From an uncultured Acidimicrobiales bacterium (GTDB taxonomy: Bacteria > Actinomycetota > Acidimicrobiia > Acidimicrobiales > DATKAS01), in contig CAVZAF010000002.1 of NCBI GenBank assembly GCA_963773315.1, positions 411,410 through 475,409 on the forward strand: a stretch of DNA of 64,000 nt, written 5' to 3'. The translations under genes and the position numbers were made by a program. A model generated the notes under the pieces. The model had not been told where the DNA came from. It did not search any database and was given only the letters and a program-made list of their open reading frames with translations. Positions 29,272 to 36,560 of this stretch are shown here, in pieces; position 1 is the stretch's first letter, and the number at the start of each line of letters is the position of its first letter.

Positions 29272-30378
29272 ATGAGCCCGGTCACTGACCGAGCCCCCCA
29301 CCGCAAGCGGAGGCGGGTCTCTCGTGCCGTTGTGGCGGCGGTGGTCTTCGGACTTCTGACCCCGCTGGTAGTCGCCTCGCCCGCCTCGGCCGACAAGATC
29401 GGCGACATGCGCAAGCAGGCGGCGCGCATGGCCGACCAGCTCGATGCGCTCCAGAACCGAGCCGACGACCTGAGCGAGAACTACGCCGAGGCGGTCTACG
29501 AGCTCCAGCAGCTCGACCAGCAAGTGGCCCAAGCCCAGTCCCAGCTCGATGCCGCAGACGCCGCGCTTGGCTCCACCCGCACACGCATGCGCGACTACGC
29601 GGTCAACGCCTACGTGCAGTTCGATCAGGCGAGCGAGCTGATGGTGTTCCTCGGCAGCACGCCCGAGAACACCGAAGCCCGCATCGGGTACGCCGATGTG
29701 GCCGTCGGCAAGGATCGAGCGCTCGCCGACACGTTCCGCTCAGCGAGCGAGGACGCGTCGTTCGCCCGGGCCGATCTGCAGTCGCAGCGCGAGAAGCAGA
29801 GTCAGCTGCAGGCACAGGTGAGCTCGGCGAAGAAGTCTGCCGAGCAAGCGGTGTCCGCGCAGCAGCGGGCGCTCTCGAAGGTGCAGGGCCAGCTCGCCAC
29901 ATTGGTGAAGCAGGAGCAGGCGCGCCGGGCCGCCGAGGCGGCGCGGGCCGCTCGAGCCCGCCAGCAGCAGAGCCGGTCGGGCCGCGTGTCGTCCTCGACC
30001 GCCGGTCGCAACGTGCCGGCGCCGTCAGCCGGTGTGTTGGGTGCGATCGCAGCCGCCCGCAGCCAGCTCGGTGTCCCCTATCGGTGGGCGAACGCGTCGC
30101 CGGGCGTGGGCTTCGACTGCTCCGGCCTCACGTCGTGGGCGTGGAGTCGCGCCGGCCGCTCCCTGCCTCACTCGTCACGGGCGCAGTACGCATCGCTCCC
30201 GCACGTGCCGCTCGACCAGCTGCAGCCCGGCGACCTCGTCTTCTTCGGCGGTCGGAGCGTGAACCACGTCGGCCTCTACATCGGCGGCGGGATGATGATC
30301 CATGCGCCGCACACAGGTGCCAATGTCGAAGTGACGACGATCTACCGCGGTGGCTTGATCGGCGCCGCTCGCCCCTGA
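29272..30378 (+). CDS. NlpC/P60 peptidoglycan endopeptidase with N-terminal coiled coil (RipA-like architecture)
   Basis: It has a signal/TM segment and a long Q/A/E-rich coiled coil. The C-terminus reads GVPYRWANASPGVGFDCSGLTSWAW...GDLVFFGGRSVNHVGLYIGGGMMIHAPHTG. Confidence 0.85.
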   Translation: MSPVTDRAPHRKRRRVSRAVVAAVVFGLLTPLVVASPASADKIGDMRKQAARMADQLDALQNRADDLSENYAEAVYELQQLDQQVAQAQSQLDAADAALGSTRTRMRDYAVNAYVQFDQASELMVFLGSTPENTEARIGYADVAVGKDRALADTFRSASEDASFARADLQSQREKQSQLQAQVSSAKKSAEQAVSAQQRALSKVQGQLATLVKQEQARRAAEAARAARARQQQSRSGRVSSSTAGRNVPAPSAGVLGAIAAARSQLGVPYRWANASPGVGFDCSGLTSWAWSRAGRSLPHSSRAQYASLPHVPLDQLQPGDLVFFGGRSVNHVGLYIGGGMMIHAPHTGANVEVTTIYRGGLIGAARP

Positions 30379-30911
30379 CGGGCCCGCTCGCCCACCTCGG
30401 TCCAGAAGTCGATCGTCAGCTGCTCGAAGCGTTGCCCCAGGTCGAGGGTGGCGAGCTCCCACTCACCGGCGTCGTCCTCGATCGCGTCGTTCAGCGCTTC
30501 GTACTCCGCGAGCATCCGCTCATGCACCTCGGTCTGAAGGTCCGCGAGTGCAGCGACCTCGTCCGCCGAAGCTGAGGCCGCGAAGAACAACTTGAGCAAC
30601 CCGAGGTCGCGCACCTCGGTGCCGTCGCCGGTGGGCTCCCCGATCCATTCGCGCAGGGCGGCGCGTCCGGCCGGCGTGATTCGGTACAGCCGGCGTCGGC
30701 GACCGTGCTCTTCCACCTCCTCGTCGAGGAGGCCCGCCGACGCCAGGCGTGCGGGCTCCGCGTACAGCTGGCTGTGCGGGAAGGGCCAGAAGTACCCGAC
30801 TGAGCTCGCGACCATCTGCTTGAGGTCGTACGACGTCACCGGCGATTCGCGAGCTGCGAAGCCGAGGACCACATACGAGACGGGGTTGAGGGAGATGTCG
30901 ACCCCGTTCAT
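30342..30911 (-). CDS. PadR family transcriptional regulator
   Basis: The translation is YVVLGFAARESPVTSYDLKQMVASSVGYFWPFPHSQLYAEPARLASAGLL...RRLYRITPAGRAAL. Confidence 0.85.
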   Translation of the reverse strand: MNGVDISLNPVSYVVLGFAARESPVTSYDLKQMVASSVGYFWPFPHSQLYAEPARLASAGLLDEEVEEHGRRRRLYRITPAGRAALREWIGEPTGDGTEVRDLGLLKLFFAASASADEVAALADLQTEVHERMLAEYEALNDAIEDDAGEWELATLDLGQRFEQLTIDFWTEVGERARQGRAAPIKPPR

Positions 30912-30941: not shown

Positions 30942-31754
30942 GTGCCTCTCGCCTCGTCCGGCTCGTCGGCCGACCCCTTCGACGGATTCGACCGACTGCC
31001 GTTCACGGCGGAGGGGCGCACGTACCCGCTGTTCCGCATCGGCGCGGGGCCCGGCATCGTCGTGATGACCGAGATGCCCGGCATCAGCCCGAAGGTCGCG
31101 GGCTTCGGGCGGCGACTCGCCGACGAAGGCTTCACCGTGGTGCTTCCGTCGATGTTCGGCACGCCGGGGCGAGAGCCGTCGGTCGGCTACGGCGTGCAGT
31201 CGATGATCCCGGCGTGCGTCGCGAAGGAGTTCGCTGCGCTCGCCACCGACAAGACCGCGCCGGTCACGCTGTGGTTGCGTGCGCTCGCGAAGCAGGTGCA
31301 CACGGAATGCGGCGGCCCCGGAGTCGGCGCTGTCGGCATGTGCTTCACCGGCGGCTTCGCGCTCGGGATGATGCTCGATGAGACGACGGTCGCTCCCGTG
31401 CTGAGCCAGCCGTCGCTCCCGATCGCGGTCTCGAAGTCACGACGAGGTGCGATCGGGCTGTCGCCGGCCGACCTCGCAGCCGTGAAGGCGCGGGCGGCCG
31501 CCGGATGCGACGTGCTCGGCTTGCGGTTCACAGGCGACAAGTTCGTCCCGAAAGAGCGCTTCGAGACGCTTCGACGCGAGCTCGGCGATCGCTTCATCGG
31601 CGTCGAGATCGACTCGTCCGAAGGCAATGCGCACGGAATCCCCAAGAACGCCCACTCGGTTCTGACCGAGCACCTCGTCGACGAGCCCGGGCACCCCACC
31701 CACGATGCGCTGAACCAGGTCATCAGCTTCTTCAAGGACCGTCTGGCGCCCTGA
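30942..31754 (+). CDS. Dienelactone hydrolase family protein
   Basis: 270-aa ORF with GIVVMTEMPGISP...VGAVGMCFTGGFAL...HSVLTEH. It is divergent from the PadR gene. Confidence 0.78.
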   Translation: MPLASSGSSADPFDGFDRLPFTAEGRTYPLFRIGAGPGIVVMTEMPGISPKVAGFGRRLADEGFTVVLPSMFGTPGREPSVGYGVQSMIPACVAKEFAALATDKTAPVTLWLRALAKQVHTECGGPGVGAVGMCFTGGFALGMMLDETTVAPVLSQPSLPIAVSKSRRGAIGLSPADLAAVKARAAAGCDVLGLRFTGDKFVPKERFETLRRELGDRFIGVEIDSSEGNAHGIPKNAHSVLTEHLVDEPGHPTHDALNQVISFFKDRLAP

Positions 31755-31799: not shown

Positions 31800-34700
31800 A
31801 TGCCGACCGCCGAGCTCAACCCCGATCAGCTCGACGCGGTCGTCCACGCGGAGGGGCCGCTCCTGATCGTCGCCGGTGCGGGGTCGGGCAAGACCCGGGT
31901 GCTGACGCACCGCATCGCTCACCTGATCGAGCACGAAGGCGTCAGCCCGTTCCGCATCCTGGCCATCACGTTCACGAACAAGGCGGCCGACGAGATGCGT
32001 CATCGCGTCGAAGCGCTCGTCGGGCCCGTGGCGAAGAAGATGTGGGTGTCGACGTTCCACTCGGCGTGCGTGCGCATCTTGCGGCGCGACATCGGTGCGC
32101 TCGGGTACCCGTCCTCGTTCACGATCTACGACGAGGCCGACGCGGTGCGGCTCACGGGATACGTGCTTCGTGACCTGAACGTCGATCCGAAGCGCTTCCC
32201 GCCGCGCAGCGTGCACGCGACGATCAGCGCCGCGAAGAACGAGCTGATCCTGCCGGAGGAGTACGCGGCGAAGGCATCGACCATCTTCGAGCGCCGCATC
32301 GCCGACATCTACCGTGAGTATCAGTCGCGGTTGCAGCGCGCAGGCGCGCTCGACTTCGACGACTTGCTCACGCTCACAGTGCGCCTCTTCAACGAGCACC
32401 CCGACGTGCTCGCGCACTACCAAGAGCGGTTCGAGCACATCCTCGTCGACGAGTACCAAGACACGAACCGCGCCCAGAACGAGATCGTGCTGAAGCTTGG
32501 CGAGGCTCACCACAACGTCTGTGTGGTCGGAGACTCAGATCAGTGCCTCCCGCCAGGGACGTTGGTGGCGACGCCTCGAGGCATGGTGCCCATCGAAGCC
32601 ATCAGCGAGGGCGATCAGGTGGTCGGCACAGGCGGTCGGCTGACGACACTCGACGGCACCGTCACCGCCGCGGTCGAGGGTGAGTACGACGGACCGATGG
32701 TCGAGGTGCGCGCCGACGGCTACACGGTTCGGGGGACGCCGCACCATCTGGTGCCGGCGCGACTCACCTTCCCGTGCGGTCAGCACCTCGTCTATCTGAT
32801 GTACCGCGCCGATCGCGGCTACCGAGTCGGGCGGACGATCAGCATGCGCCCGCGTTCGAAAGGCAAGGACGACGTGGGAATTCGCGTCCGTGTCGTCCAG
32901 GAACATGCGGACGCGGCGTGGGTGCTGCGAGTGTGTGACACGGTCGCGGAGGCGGCCTACTGGGAGGCCTACTACGCAGCCGAGTACGGCATTCCGACCG
33001 CGTGCTTCCACGGCCTCGGCCGCGACCTCGCGATGGACGAAGCGTGGCTCGGACGGCTGTACACCGAGCTCGACACGGCGCTCGGGGCGAAGGTGCTCCT
33101 CGAGGATCATCTGCTCCACCCCGAGTTCCCCCATGTTCGCCCGCAGAACGGGTCTCGACGCCAGACGCTCAACGTGACGATGTTCAGTGGCGCTCGCGGG
33201 GAGGTTGGTCACCACCGGATCCAGTGGTCGTCGAACCGGCTCGAGATCGCCGAGCGCATCCAGCGCGCCGGCATCCTCGTGCGAGGGCTCGGCGGCGACC
33301 GTGCTGGCTATCGCTTCGAGACGGCCCGGAAGAGCTGGGCCGAGGCACTCGACCTCGCCAAGTCGGTCGCTTCAGCGGGCGGTCTCGACCTTCGCCGGCG
33401 GATGGCGATCGGCGACGTGATCTACGACCTCATGCCGTTGTCGCACCTACGACCCGGGATGACGGTGCTGGTGCGGGGCGACGGCGGCTCGCTCGTCGAG
33501 GCCACCGTGGATGCAACGGAGCAATCGCACTACTCCGGTCCGGTGTACGACCTCGAGGTCGATCGACTGCACAGCTACATCGCGAACGACGTGCTGGTGC
33601 ACAACAGCATCTACCGCTTTCGTGCTGCCGACATCCGCAACATCCTCGAGTTCGAGCAGGCGTTCCCCGACGTCACGGTGATCACGCTCGAGCAGAACTA
33701 CCGGTCGACGCAGACGATCCTCGACGCGGCAAACGCGGTGATCGCGAACAACCTCGGCCGCAAGCCGAAGAACCTCTGGACCGATCAGGGCATCGGCGAT
33801 CCGATCGTGCGCTACCACGCCGACGACGAGGGAGACGAAGCGCAGTGGGTCGCGCACCAGATCGCACTGCTGCACGACGAGGATCATCGTCGATGGGGTG
33901 ATGTCGCCGTCTTCTACCGCACGAACGCGCAGAGCCGCGTGCTCGAGGAGCACTTCATGCGCGTGGGAATCCCGTACAAGGTGCTCGGCGGCACCAGGTT
34001 CTACGACCGGCGTGAGATCAAAGACGCGGTCGCCTACCTCAGGGCCGTCGCGAACCCGGCGGACGAGGTGAGCGTCAAGCGGGTCGTGAACGTGCCCAAG
34101 CGGGGCGTCGGTGACACCACGGTCGGACGCGTCGACAACTGGGCGACGAGTCACGGCTTGTCGTTTCACGACGGCGCTGCGCAGGGCCGATGACGCTGGT
34201 GTGTCGACGGCCGCGCAGAAGGGCATCGCGTCGTTCCTCGAGCTGCTCGACGAGGCGCGGGGGATGCTCGACGAGGGACCCGGGTCGGTGCTCGAGCTGC
34301 TGCTCGAGGGGTCGGGGTACCTGAAGGAGCTGCACGTCGAGCACTCGGTCGAAGCAGAGGGAAGGCTCGAGAACCTCGCCGAGCTCGTCGGCTCGGCGCG
34401 CGAGATGGCGTCCGTGGACGACTTCCTCGAGCAGGTCTCGCTGGTCTCCGACACCGACGAGCTCGATGGGGACAGCGGCGCGGTCGTGCTCATGACGTTG
34501 CACTCGGCGAAGGGCCTCGAGTTCCCGGTCGTGTTCCTCATCGGGTGTGAGGACGGCGTGTTCCCACACATCCGCTCGCTCACCGAGCCCGAGGAGCTCG
34601 AGGAGGAGCGCCGGCTCGCTTACGTCGGGATCACACGGGCTCGCGAGCGCCTCTTCGTCAGCCACGCGTGGAGCCGCATGCTGTGGGGCGCGACGCAGTA

Positions 34701-35092
34701 CAACCCTCCGAGCCGGTTCCTCGATGAGATCCCGTCTGGGCTGGTCCAGATGGTCGACGGCGCGGGCCGGACGCCGGGTCGAGCGTCGATGCGCGCGCAC
34801 TATCGGTCAGATGGAGGGGGGCGTCGCGAGGGCTTCGGCCCGGCCACAGGCGTGGCGCGTGACCGAATCGTCGATCAGGCGATCCGCGGCAGGCGAGCGA
34901 CCGGCGACGACGGGTGCCGAGCGGCTCGGGCTGCGCATCGGTGACGACGTGCGCCACGCCAAGTTCGGCGATGGCGTGATCCTGGGGATCGAGGGCGCGG
35001 GCGACAAGGCCGAGGCGATCGTCCAGTTCAGCGGCTTCGGAGAGAAGCGCCTTCTGCTGTCGTGGAGCCCGCTCGAGAGGCTCGGGCCGTGA
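31800..35092 (+). CDS. pcrA: ATP-dependent DNA helicase PcrA/UvrD, interrupted by an intein, with two apparent frameshifts (about 34172 and about 34888)
   Basis: SF1 helicase motifs are present: AGAGSGKTRVLTHRIA, TFTNKAADEM, VDEYQDTN, VGDSDQ|intein|SIYRFRAADIRN, YRSTQ, TLHSAKGLEFPVVFL and LAYVGITRARERL. The C-terminal tail reads HAKFGDGVILG. Confidence 0.9.
32544..33605 (+). mobile_element. Intein (354 codons) inserted in PcrA helicase motif III
   Basis: Block A is Cys1 (CLPPGTLVATPRGMVPIEAISEGDQVVG). Block B is GTPHHLV. Blocks F/G are GPVYDLEVDRLHSYIANDVLVHN, followed by +1 Ser. Excision restores GDSDQSIYRFRAA. Confidence 0.88.
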
Positions 35093-36560
35093 TCCAGGCC
35101 GCGGCCGCACGGGGCCGGCTCGTCACCGCCCGCGACCTCACGCTCGGCTCGTTCCTTCCGCTCCTCGCCGAGATCCACGGGGAGCGCACGCTCATGACCA
35201 CGAACGCCGAGCGGCTCTCCTTCGCGCAGGCGGCCGAGCGCGTCGAGCGGTGGGCGGGAGCGGTGCGCGCCGAGGTCACCGGCGGCAGCCGCGTCGTGCT
35301 CATCCTCGAGGGCTACGACCTCTTGCTCGCGTCACTGGCGGTCTCGCGCGGGCGGGCTGCCGGTGCCGATCAACGCTCAGATGCGCCCTGACGAGGTCGA
35401 CCATGTGGTGCGCGATGCGGGCGCGGCGATGGTCGTGCGTGACGCGGTCGAGCTCAGCGGAGCCTCGCGGCTCGTCGAACCGGTGCCCGCTCGAGCGTCT
35501 GACGTCGCGGCCCTCTTCTACACGTCGGGCACCACCGGCAAGCCGAAGGGGGTCGAGCTCACCCACCGCGGGCTGCTCGGCACATCGAACCTCGCGGCGC
35601 TCTTTCCGAGCGGGCTGCGCCACGACGAGGCGGTGGTCGCGCTGCCCGTCGCCCACATCTACGGGTTCACCGCGCTGCTCGGCCTCGCGGCAGCGGGTGT
35701 TCCGGTGCACTATCTGAATCGCTTCCGAGCAGATGACGTGCTCGACGCGATCGAGCAGCGGGGAGCGACGATGTTCCTGGGGGTGCCGGCGATGTACCGG
35801 CTCATGGCCGAGGCGGGCGCGTCCGCGCGCGACCTGAGGAGCGTGCGCGTGTGGGCGTCGGGCGCGGACGTGATGCCCGAAGACCTCGCCGCAGCGGTTC
35901 CGGCACATGGGTGCGAGCGCGGCGCTCCCCGTCGTCGGGCACGTTGGCGATGCGCTCTTCGTCGAGGGCTACGGCATGGTCGAGCTCGGAGGAGGAGTGG
36001 CCCTGAAGGTGGGCCCGAACCTCGTCGCTCTCCCGGGCTACCGCTTCCGTGTCGTCGACGACAATGGCCGTGAAGTCGCGGTCGGCCAGATCGGTGAGCT
36101 GTGGGTGCGCGGACCCGGCACGTTGCGCGGCTACTACGGCGACGCGAAGGCGACCGCTGACACGCTGACAGCTGACGGCTGGGTGCGCACCGGCGACCTC
36201 GTGAGGCGAGGACTCGGCAACACCGTCCGCTTCTCGGGCCGCAAGAAGGACGTGATCAAGCACGGCGGCTACTCGGTGTACGCGGTCGAGGTCGAGGCGG
36301 CCCTGACTGAGCATCCCGAAATCGTCGAGGCCGCGGTCGTGGGTCTCGCCGACCCGCGCAAGGGCGAGGTCCCGGTCGCCGCGGTGCGCGTGCGCGAGGG
36401 ATCGAAGGTGAAGCCTGCTGAGCTCGTGGCATGGGCGGCGGAGCACCTGTCTGACTACAAGGCGCCGCGACAGGTGGTCATCGTCGACGAGCTCCCGCGC
36501 ACCGGCACCACGAAGGTGCAGAAGAGCGGACTCGTCGACCTCTTCGACGCTCGCGTCTGA
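35089..36560 (+). CDS. Acyl-CoA synthetase / AMP-dependent ligase (two apparent frameshifts, about 35353 and about 35897)
   Basis: AMP-binding motifs are present: LFYTSGTTGKPKGVELTH, EGYGMVE, WVRTGDL, SGRKKDVIKHGGYSV and [21 protein letters not shown]. The gene is read across three frames. Confidence 0.85.

Follow-up and report, generated by a model that had tools for sequence, protein, structure and literature searches.

Inteins are usually described with homing endonucleases of the LAGLIDADG type or, rarely, of the HNH type. In LAGLIDADG inteins such as PI-SceI, PI-PfuI, PI-TkoII and the RecA intein of M. tuberculosis (PI-MtuI), an in-frame insert of about 200 amino acids (aa) situated after block B splits the Hint splicing domain, the whole element measures 350 to 450 aa and its site lies in a conserved ATPase motif of a protein of DNA metabolism. 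GIY-YIG domains have been recorded in group I introns and in free-standing genes, and not in inteins (PMC1564403). GIY-YIG and Vsr-like endonucleases were reported as unknown in inteins except as separate open reading frames (ORFs) between the halves of split inteins, and these 'fractured genes' were proposed as a route for inteins to gain new endonuclease domains (Dassa et al. 2009, PMC2677866). A survey of phage inteins reported in-frame HNH endonucleases as well as LAGLIDADG, Vsr-like and EndoVII-like ones encoded antisense or out of frame (Gosselin et al., preprint, 10.1101/2025.01.02.630785). Analysis was performed here on an intein located at positions 32544-33605 (+ strand) of a 64,000-nucleotide stretch of DNA (hereafter the window) from an uncultured Acidimicrobiales bacterium (contig CAVZAF010000002.1 of assembly GCA_963773315.1). 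It interrupts a pcrA helicase gene, and the first part of its central domain (sub1) is, in our judgement, probably a GIY-YIG-derived nuclease acting as the homing endonuclease of the intein, a reading that is based on profile comparisons and predicted structure and that faces several contrary observations.

The element was compared with the described systems. With the LAGLIDADG inteins it shared the interrupted Hint domain, the size, the site in a conserved ATPase motif and a Hint half that superposes on theirs. It differed from them by the lack of a LAGLIDADG motif and of any Pfam match in its central domain, by poor structural superposition (template modelling score, TM, of 0.26-0.29) and by conserved Y, R, G, R, E and E residues in a predicted β-β-α-β-α unit. 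These last features resembled GIY-YIG enzymes (I-TevI, I-BmoI, the Seg proteins and the N-terminal nuclease domain of UvrC). Their catalytic unit of about 85-90 aa has the order of elements predicted for sub1, strand 1 containing a Tyr and strand 2 x-[IV]-G, while an Arg is found on helix 1 and a Glu on the final helix. The GIY-YIG homing endonucleases are also bipartite, a catalytic module being followed by a linker and a variable, presumably DNA-binding module, as proposed here for the window intein. However, known GIY-YIG enzymes are free-standing or intron-encoded, and the window intein has none of the NUMOD, zinc-finger or helix-turn-helix modules. In fractured genes the intein is split and the endonuclease is an ORF of its own, whereas the window intein is a single contiguous frame with splicing blocks on both sides. 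The phage inteins surveyed by Gosselin et al. are precedents for endonucleases beyond the in-frame LAGLIDADG type, but the window holds another domain family and it is the in-frame reading that is under selection.

The identity of the intein itself was established with certainty: 32544-33605 is a complete class-1 intein. The host gene begins with a + strand ORF (31800-34193) encoding a PcrA/UvrD-type helicase. Translation of the insert gave 354 codons without any stop (CLPPGTLV...TPHH...VYDLEVDRLHSYIANDVLVHN), the N-end being CLPPGTLV and the C-end DVLVHN, directly followed by SIYRFRAADIRN (SIYRFRAAD). All splicing residues were present, namely Cys1, T65-P-H-H68, His353-Asn354 and a Ser at position +1. 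The Hint_2 and intein_Nterm models matched intein aa 1-37/1-70, and Intein_splicing and intein_Cterm matched aa 320-354 (Pfam, NCBIfam), with an intein_Cterm score of 27.6 bits for a cutoff of 15.6. An AlphaFold (AF2) model built from 20 homologues reached a mean predicted local distance difference test score (pLDDT) of 90.6, and its Hint part matched mini-inteins and the hedgehog Hint domain with target-normalised TM of 0.76-0.83 (Foldseek).

The insertion point was defined by orthologues. The UvrD-helicase and pcrA (TIGR01073) models ended at ORF residue 249 and restarted at residue 603 (Pfam, NCBIfam). The solved PcrA of G. stearothermophilus (2pjr) aligned by its residues 10-255 to ORF residues 4-249 and by its residues 255-443 to ORF residues 603-791. 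Because this alignment resumes straight after the break, the 354 aa are an exact insertion between ...VGDxDQ and SIYRxRGAD, that is, between the Gln and the Ser of motif III of this superfamily 1 (SF1) helicase. The same break was seen in alignments with mycobacterial UvrD1 and with UvrD and Rep of E. coli, and none of the intein-less orthologues aligned through the insert. These results bore out in full the observation of a first-pass annotation made from the letters of the window alone, which had proposed a class-1 intein at these coordinates on the strength of the same residues (also found in 73 of 80 related loci), had stated that its removal would restore motif III and had noticed neither a LAGLIDADG nor an HNH signature in the insert, for which indeed no such Pfam or NCBIfam model was matched. 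An exact-sequence look-up of the helicase ORF of the window returned no match. The organisation of the locus is listed below.

31800..32543, + strand: pcrA N-extein, which covers SF1 motifs I-II and motif III in its first half, up to ...VCVVGDSDQ (UvrD-helicase/pcrA matches at ORF residues 4-249; 2pjr residues 10-255).
32544..33605, + strand: complete class-1 intein, 354 aa, Cys1 to Asn354 (family models, AF2 fold, orthologue break; same frame in 73/80 loci).
32544..32762, + strand: N-terminal half of Hint, with block A Cys1 at 32544-32546 and block B TPHH at 32736-32747 (Hint_2, intein_Nterm; β-rich, pLDDT 93-98; Foldseek matches to mini-inteins).
32781..33023, + strand: sub1, putative GIY-YIG-like catalytic module, aa 80-160, about 85 aa (structure order, conservation, Pfam, hhalign, dN/dS).
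33024..33131, + strand: two-helix connector ending in a near-invariant (Y/F)-P196-H197 (helices at aa 166-175 and 178-188; P and H kept in at least 90%).
33132..33401, + strand: sub2, predicted β-β-α-β-β-α with many basic residues, aa ~197-286 (predicted structure; no recurrent Pfam family in 57 members).
33402..33605, + strand: C-terminal half of Hint, blocks F and G, with His353-Asn354 at 33600-33605 (Intein_splicing and intein_Cterm at aa 320-354; alignments with mini-inteins of the Protein Data Bank, PDB).
33606..35092, + strand: pcrA C-extein, with the +1 Ser at 33606-33608 and SIYRFRAADIRN, the frame being broken at 34173 and ~34888 (UvrD_C on ORFs 31800-34193 and 34111-34944; frame and indel analysis against the closest relative, L022).

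For the central region of about 215 aa (intein positions ~74-288), neither the models of Pfam, NCBIfam and PHROGs nor the PDB sequences gave a match. Predicted models gave sub1 the order β1 (VYLMYRA), β2 (GYRVGRT), a hairpin, α1 (IRVRVVQE), β3 (AWVLRVCD) and α2 (AEAAYWEAYYAAEYG). Among 67 sequences, down to 33% identity, Tyr84, Arg94, Gly96, Arg116 and Glu120 were invariant, and Gly92, Asp123, Trp126, Glu141, Pro151 and Phe155, all of them within sub1, were kept in at least 90%. The two strings quoted in the first-pass annotation as reminiscent of a GIY-YIG nuclease, HLVYLMYRADRGYRVGRT (aa 81-98) and AAYWEAYYAAEYGIP (aa 137-151), turned out to be the two best-conserved parts of the central domain. 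His197, in the connector, was the sole near-invariant His of this domain, and the family alignment showed no invariant position in sub2, which is probably a DNA-binding domain. With its invariant residues in sub1 and none in sub2, the central domain can be read as a catalytic module joined to a variable DNA-binding module. Comparison of sub1 with sub2 gave an hhalign score of 22.6 (P 4.5e-4), for maxima of 15.1 among 100 shuffles and of 16.6 among real-protein decoys. The central domain may thus be a tandem duplication whose second copy would have lost the catalytic or conserved polar residues.

Two profile methods pointed to a GIY-YIG ancestry of sub1. Members of the family were compared one at a time with the complete set of 24,736 Pfam models under a lenient threshold, and a single model, GIY-YIG (PF01541, cutoff 22.6 bits), was matched repeatedly, by 2 of 29 whole domains and by 7 of 67 segments of sub1. 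The highest score, 20.9 bits (E value 4.5e-4), came from a member whose residues 5-68 aligned on profile positions 2-69 of 78, a span that takes in the entire module. The same procedure applied to 57 connector-plus-sub2 segments yielded singletons only and no recurrent family, so that the recurrence of GIY-YIG is not a product of the method. In hhalign, an alignment of 100 sub1 sequences reached a score of 23.4 (P 7e-4) against I-TevI and ten phage homologues, the I-TevI sequence used being 100% correct by tblastn, and 20.5 (P 3e-3) against three UvrC N-terminal domains, two of which were taken from PDB alignments. Column shuffles (150 per target) scored 10 ± 2 with a maximum of 18.8, none of the 150 reaching the observed score, and reversed targets scored 6-9. 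When 23 segments of 86 columns were taken along a 70-sequence alignment of PcrA with its intein, the top score against the I-TevI-like alignment (23.1) fell exactly on sub1; a segment across the start of sub1 scored 15.0 and those outside sub1 7.5-14.8.

The register of these alignments was the one proposed by the first-pass annotation: V-Y84-L corresponds to G-I-Y, R94-[IV]-G96 to Y-[IV]-G and W126-x-L to strand 3. Tyr84, invariant within V-Y-L-M, was aligned to the GIY Tyr by both hidden Markov model (HMM) and hhalign comparisons, and Glu141 was aligned to Glu75 of I-TevI. The invariant Arg116 lies on helix 1, and its equivalence to the GIY-YIG Arg is based on its helix position, not on a stable alignment. 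The predicted β-β-α-β-α order of sub1 would be that of the GIY-YIG core, a domain of about 100 aa in which helices flank a three-stranded sheet.

Analysis of the distribution of the central domain was also performed. Used alone as a query against representatives of about 15 billion proteins, the central region retrieved 846 clusters (50% identity) at E values up to 1e-3, 308 of them at up to 1e-10. Among the best 150 of these 846 matches, most were helicases about 1000-1170 aa long that carried the domain at residues ~330-560, and their readable junctions were VVGDxDQ|C. The element was carried by at least 378 species genomes in a scan of one genome per species, mostly of Acidimicrobiia (Ilumatobacteraceae, Microthrixaceae) and in some cases of Deinococcus or Trueperaceae. 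In 73 of 80 retrieved genome loci, the same site held an intein of 350-364 aa with an unbroken Cys...His-Asn|Ser frame; the many truncated proteins returned by the first homology search are therefore attributable to poor assemblies and not to decay. L022, with an intein 88% identical to that of the window, and L011 were the closest relatives, and both are metagenome-assembled genomes (MAGs) of Acidimicrobiales.

Nearly all family members occupied the same site in UvrD/PcrA-like helicases. The predicted structures of three phage proteins held the same domain (Foldseek), one of these proteins being named DNA methyltransferase and one DNA helicase. In phi92-like coliphages, the UvrD/Rep helicase contains an intein of the same central-domain family, with 26-30% identity over 91-92% of the domain and with the common motifs VVYLM, GFRVG.T, LWVL, E..E, YGIPT and YPHW. 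Examples are bas62_0080 of Escherichia phage JohannJBalmer (MZ501084.1, locus L091, 2264-3304) and gp198 of phi92, with an annotated intein of 347 aa. It differs from the window intein by its phage host gene and by its membership of a divergent sub-group having FGxNG in place of IDT, and its records say only 'intein', with no endonuclease type. In addition, seven very long UvrD-like helicases of 1479-2536 aa (P0085, P0094, P0136, P0143, P0144, P0172 and P0180) contained several inteins each. Six of them had two or three copies of the central domain at different insertion sites (in P0085, for instance, ...VLVDE|C and ...GDDKQ|C) and P0180 had one copy, while P0136 and P0180 additionally carried a classical LAGLIDADG_3 intein.

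Selection on the element was estimated from the ratio of nonsynonymous to synonymous substitution rates (dN/dS) in 126 pairs among 74 intact inteins. Median values were 0.25 for the N-terminal half of Hint, 0.10 for sub1, 0.17 for the connector, 0.14 for sub2 and 0.22 for the C-terminal half of Hint, so that constraint is stronger on the central insert than on the Hint domain around it. Between the window and L022, dN/dS in the intein frame was 0.06-0.10. A central domain that would be a decaying remnant was ruled out by the values of 0.10-0.17 and by the intact frames. An antisense or out-of-frame endonuclease was likewise rejected: the ORFs overlapping the intein (32535-33215 on the - strand and 33002-33901 on the + strand) matched no family, and it is the intein frame that is under selection. 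Such overlapping ORFs are typical of DNA with 69% G+C.

Inteins of Deinococcota (L040, L047, L061, L069 and L086, from Deinococcus and Trueperaceae MAGs) were 54-57% identical to that of the window, for only 46-52% identity between the PcrA exteins. Within Acidimicrobiia, on the other hand, exteins (59-81%, the near-identical L022 apart) were closer to those of the window than inteins were (51-61%). The intein is thus as similar across phyla as within its own class, and more so than the conserved host protein, which shows horizontal transfer and is the signature of movement between Actinomycetota and Deinococcota. Selected, intact and spread horizontally, the element looks like an active homing element, though these properties do not by themselves prove nuclease activity.

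A series of observations weighs against sub1 as a GIY-YIG nuclease. The window's own sub1 matched no GIY-YIG model at E values up to 10, and no family member reached the gathering score of PF01541. The position of the YIG Tyr is taken by the invariant Arg94, which gives VYL...RIG in place of GIY...YIG, the Gly being kept. Two branches of the GIY-YIG clan, T5orf172 and MUG113, have K-I-G-x-T in place of YIG, a variant beside which R-I-G-x-T would be less unusual. Known GIY-YIG enzymes have a His or a Tyr four residues after the helix-1 Arg, where sub1 has an invariant Glu, and no equivalent of the conserved GIY-YIG Asn was identified in sub1. Between β2 and helix 1 lies a hairpin of 12-16 residues, and hhalign was inconsistent in its placement of the central part of the domain. 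The margin of the UvrC comparison was small (20.5 for sub1 versus 17.3 for real-protein decoys). Family profiles (A2 and A4) found no central-domain match among PDB sequences, and the A4 profile gave nothing in hhalign against the single I-TevI sequence, the signal being confined to comparisons of alignment with alignment. Foldseek comparison of the central model with the PDB gave no match at E values up to 0.001 and no GIY-YIG structure among the 50 matches listed. When the sub1 profile was run against a set of 5.8 billion proteins, no free-standing relative annotated as GIY-YIG was found and only short fragments of intein genes were returned, such as a Caloramator 'hypothetical protein' situated inside a frameshifted pcrA. 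Finally, purifying selection indicates function and is not proof of nuclease activity. The GIY-YIG idea of the first-pass annotation therefore stood only in part. Its register, the order of secondary structures and a recurrent sub-threshold Pfam signal agreed with it, but the two substituted positions and the absence of a match for the window's copy did not. HMM searches and fold comparison of the insert recovered the Hint domain, but neither a GIY-YIG, nor a LAGLIDADG, nor an HNH model matched the window's copy, and its central model gave weak LAGLIDADG resemblances only.

These resemblances raise the question of a strongly diverged LAGLIDADG-type endonuclease, in which sub1 and sub2 would be pseudo-symmetric halves with eroded signature helices. 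Most of the 50 PDB matches listed were indeed LAGLIDADG enzymes (I-OnuI, I-LtrI, I-PanMI, I-CpaMI, I-TnaI, I-Vdi141I, I-CvuI), with local alignments of about 82 columns and probabilities up to 0.63, but all of them were weak (E values of 0.03-0.8), with a root-mean-square deviation (rmsd) of 4.4-5.7 Å over these columns or of about 16 Å overall. The signal is probably due to the last connector helix (helix 4), which together with sub2 reproduces the α-β-β-α-β-β-α order of a LAGLIDADG half-domain; according to the alignment, the helix ahead of sub2 usually ends acidic. The resemblance of sub1 to sub2, of the tandem-duplication kind, would also suit two such halves, yet sub1 has no N-terminal helix, a G-D/E-G helix end running straight into a strand was found nowhere, and the invariant residues are all on sub1 strands and helices without LAGLIDADG counterpart. 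With the whole-intein model, LAGLIDADG inteins were matched at a better E value (1.8e-6) than mini-inteins (2.2e-4). However, the query-normalised TM of PI-SceI, PI-PfuI and PI-TkoII (the 0.26-0.29 given above, with rmsd of 22-26 Å) was no better than that of mini-inteins (0.32-0.35), which means that the LAGLIDADG central domains do not superpose. LAGLIDADG_1, 2 and 3 and Hom_end were matched neither by the window nor in the scans of 29 whole domains, 67 sub1 and 57 sub2 segments, and hhalign against I-CreI remained at noise level (P 0.2-0.5). The I-D-T motif was rejected as a LAGLIDADG-type catalytic acid, as it is kept in the close family only and not in the wider one. Taken together, a LAGLIDADG origin seems quite improbable. 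As for the HNH type (ββα-metal fold with conserved His/Asn), no HNH model matched in the window or in the member scans.

Another explanation can be based on a fold separate from both, which would be either a new type of nuclease or a non-nuclease domain (DNA-binding, regulatory, or involved in folding or conditional splicing) of benefit to the host or to the intein. It would agree with the lack of any significant library model for the window's own sequence, with an invariant set (Y, R, R, E, D, E) unlike the canonical GIY-YIG one and with the fact that the domain was seen inside inteins only, never free-standing. Moreover, a simple homing cycle predicts decay of the endonuclease after fixation, and the element is intact across Acidimicrobiia under strong purifying selection, making a role at the level of the host conceivable. 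On the other hand, a full-length GIY-YIG signal in consistent register, recurring in two independent profile methods and missing from the control half, is hard to obtain by chance, and transfer across phyla, spread to phage genes and new sites in the same helicases are the products expected of an active homing endonuclease. We regard a separate fold as unlikely, if somewhat less so than a LAGLIDADG origin. The GIY-YIG-derived nuclease is thus the reading retained here. Its extension to a large unnamed class of intein-borne homing endonucleases, in which a divergent GIY-YIG core (Y...R-I-G...R...E...E) would be fused to an inactivated duplicate of itself, is a proposal for which we consider the chances evenly balanced.

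By inference from the intein family, whose sequence and fold features were observed here, splicing would start with an N-S acyl shift at Cys1; the +1 Ser would then attack, Asn354 would cyclise and an O-N shift would complete the reaction, yielding GDSDQ-SIYRFRAAD. As to nuclease activity, target site and homing, we infer the following scheme. The free intein would be a homing endonuclease built unlike the LAGLIDADG or HNH types, its sub1 being a catalytic module that would owe its GIY-YIG-like fold to descent or to convergence. The putative active site would consist of Tyr84, Arg94, Arg116, Glu120 and Glu141 with one metal ion: Tyr84 would act as the GIY Tyr, Arg94-x-Gly96 would stand for YIG, Arg116 and Glu120 would be contributed by helix 1 and Glu141 would bind the metal. 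The basic, fast-evolving sub2, possibly an inactivated duplicate of sub1, would bind the motif-III DNA of an intein-less pcrA/uvrD gene, perhaps together with a surface of Hint. The empty allele would be cut and then repaired by recombination with the copy that bears the intein, and the element would spread in this way.

The element itself is not new, as UvrD inteins have already been surveyed (16 bacterial cases, PMC4760082) and the phage homologue is annotated 'intein'. No description of the central domain, nor of a GIY-YIG domain inside a contiguous intein, was found in the searchable literature. If the GIY-YIG reading is true, this would be the first group of inteins with a GIY-YIG domain in one contiguous frame, distributed over Actinomycetota and Deinococcota as well as phages, among them the culturable phi92-like coliphages, with members at more than one site of UvrD-type helicases and, according to the protein name given by one submitter, in a phage methyltransferase. 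Such a module would add an endonuclease type to those of inteins, would back the idea that inteins have repeatedly captured free-standing endonucleases and could serve as a nuclease scaffold that is compact, bipartite and perhaps re-targetable. The homologues in phi92-like phages of E. coli represent a tractable system for homing and cleavage. With regard to annotation, Pfam, NCBIfam and PHROGs lack a model for this domain, and its host genes frequently appear as fragments in protein sets derived from metagenomes.

Downstream of the intein, the pcrA frame of the window was interrupted. The window and L022 were 91.6% identical in nucleotides over 6.6 kb, and uncompensated indels of 1-2 nucleotides were found at 34173, 34888, 35098, 35351 and 35893. 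Insertions of one nucleotide at 34173 (CACGAC[G]GCGCTG) and ~34888 (ATCCGC[G]GCAGGC) split pcrA into the ORFs 31800-34193, 34111-34944 and 34547-35092, the last of which appears to end in a Tudor-tail-like sequence of PcrA/UvrD, so that the gene would terminate at 35092. Three of the five indels were single-base insertions in GC-rich ...CGC/GAC-GC... contexts, and five frameshifting differences within 1.8 kb suggest a locally error-prone assembly. The indels are most likely assembly errors, not signs of pseudogenisation, and a true pcrA pseudogene was not retained because of this resemblance to assembly errors. The closest relatives, from one MAG series (MFD...), are suspected to be long-read assemblies.

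The genes upstream of pcrA appear, by translation, to encode a coiled-coil protein with an NlpC/P60-type C-terminus (29272-30378), a PadR-like regulator (30342-30911, - strand) and a dienelactone-hydrolase-like protein (30942-31754), and nothing ties them to the intein. The downstream gene (35062-36560), to which the indels at 35098, 35351 and 35893 belong, resembles, by translation, an adenosine monophosphate (AMP)-dependent acyl-CoA synthetase and is split over three overlapping ORFs.

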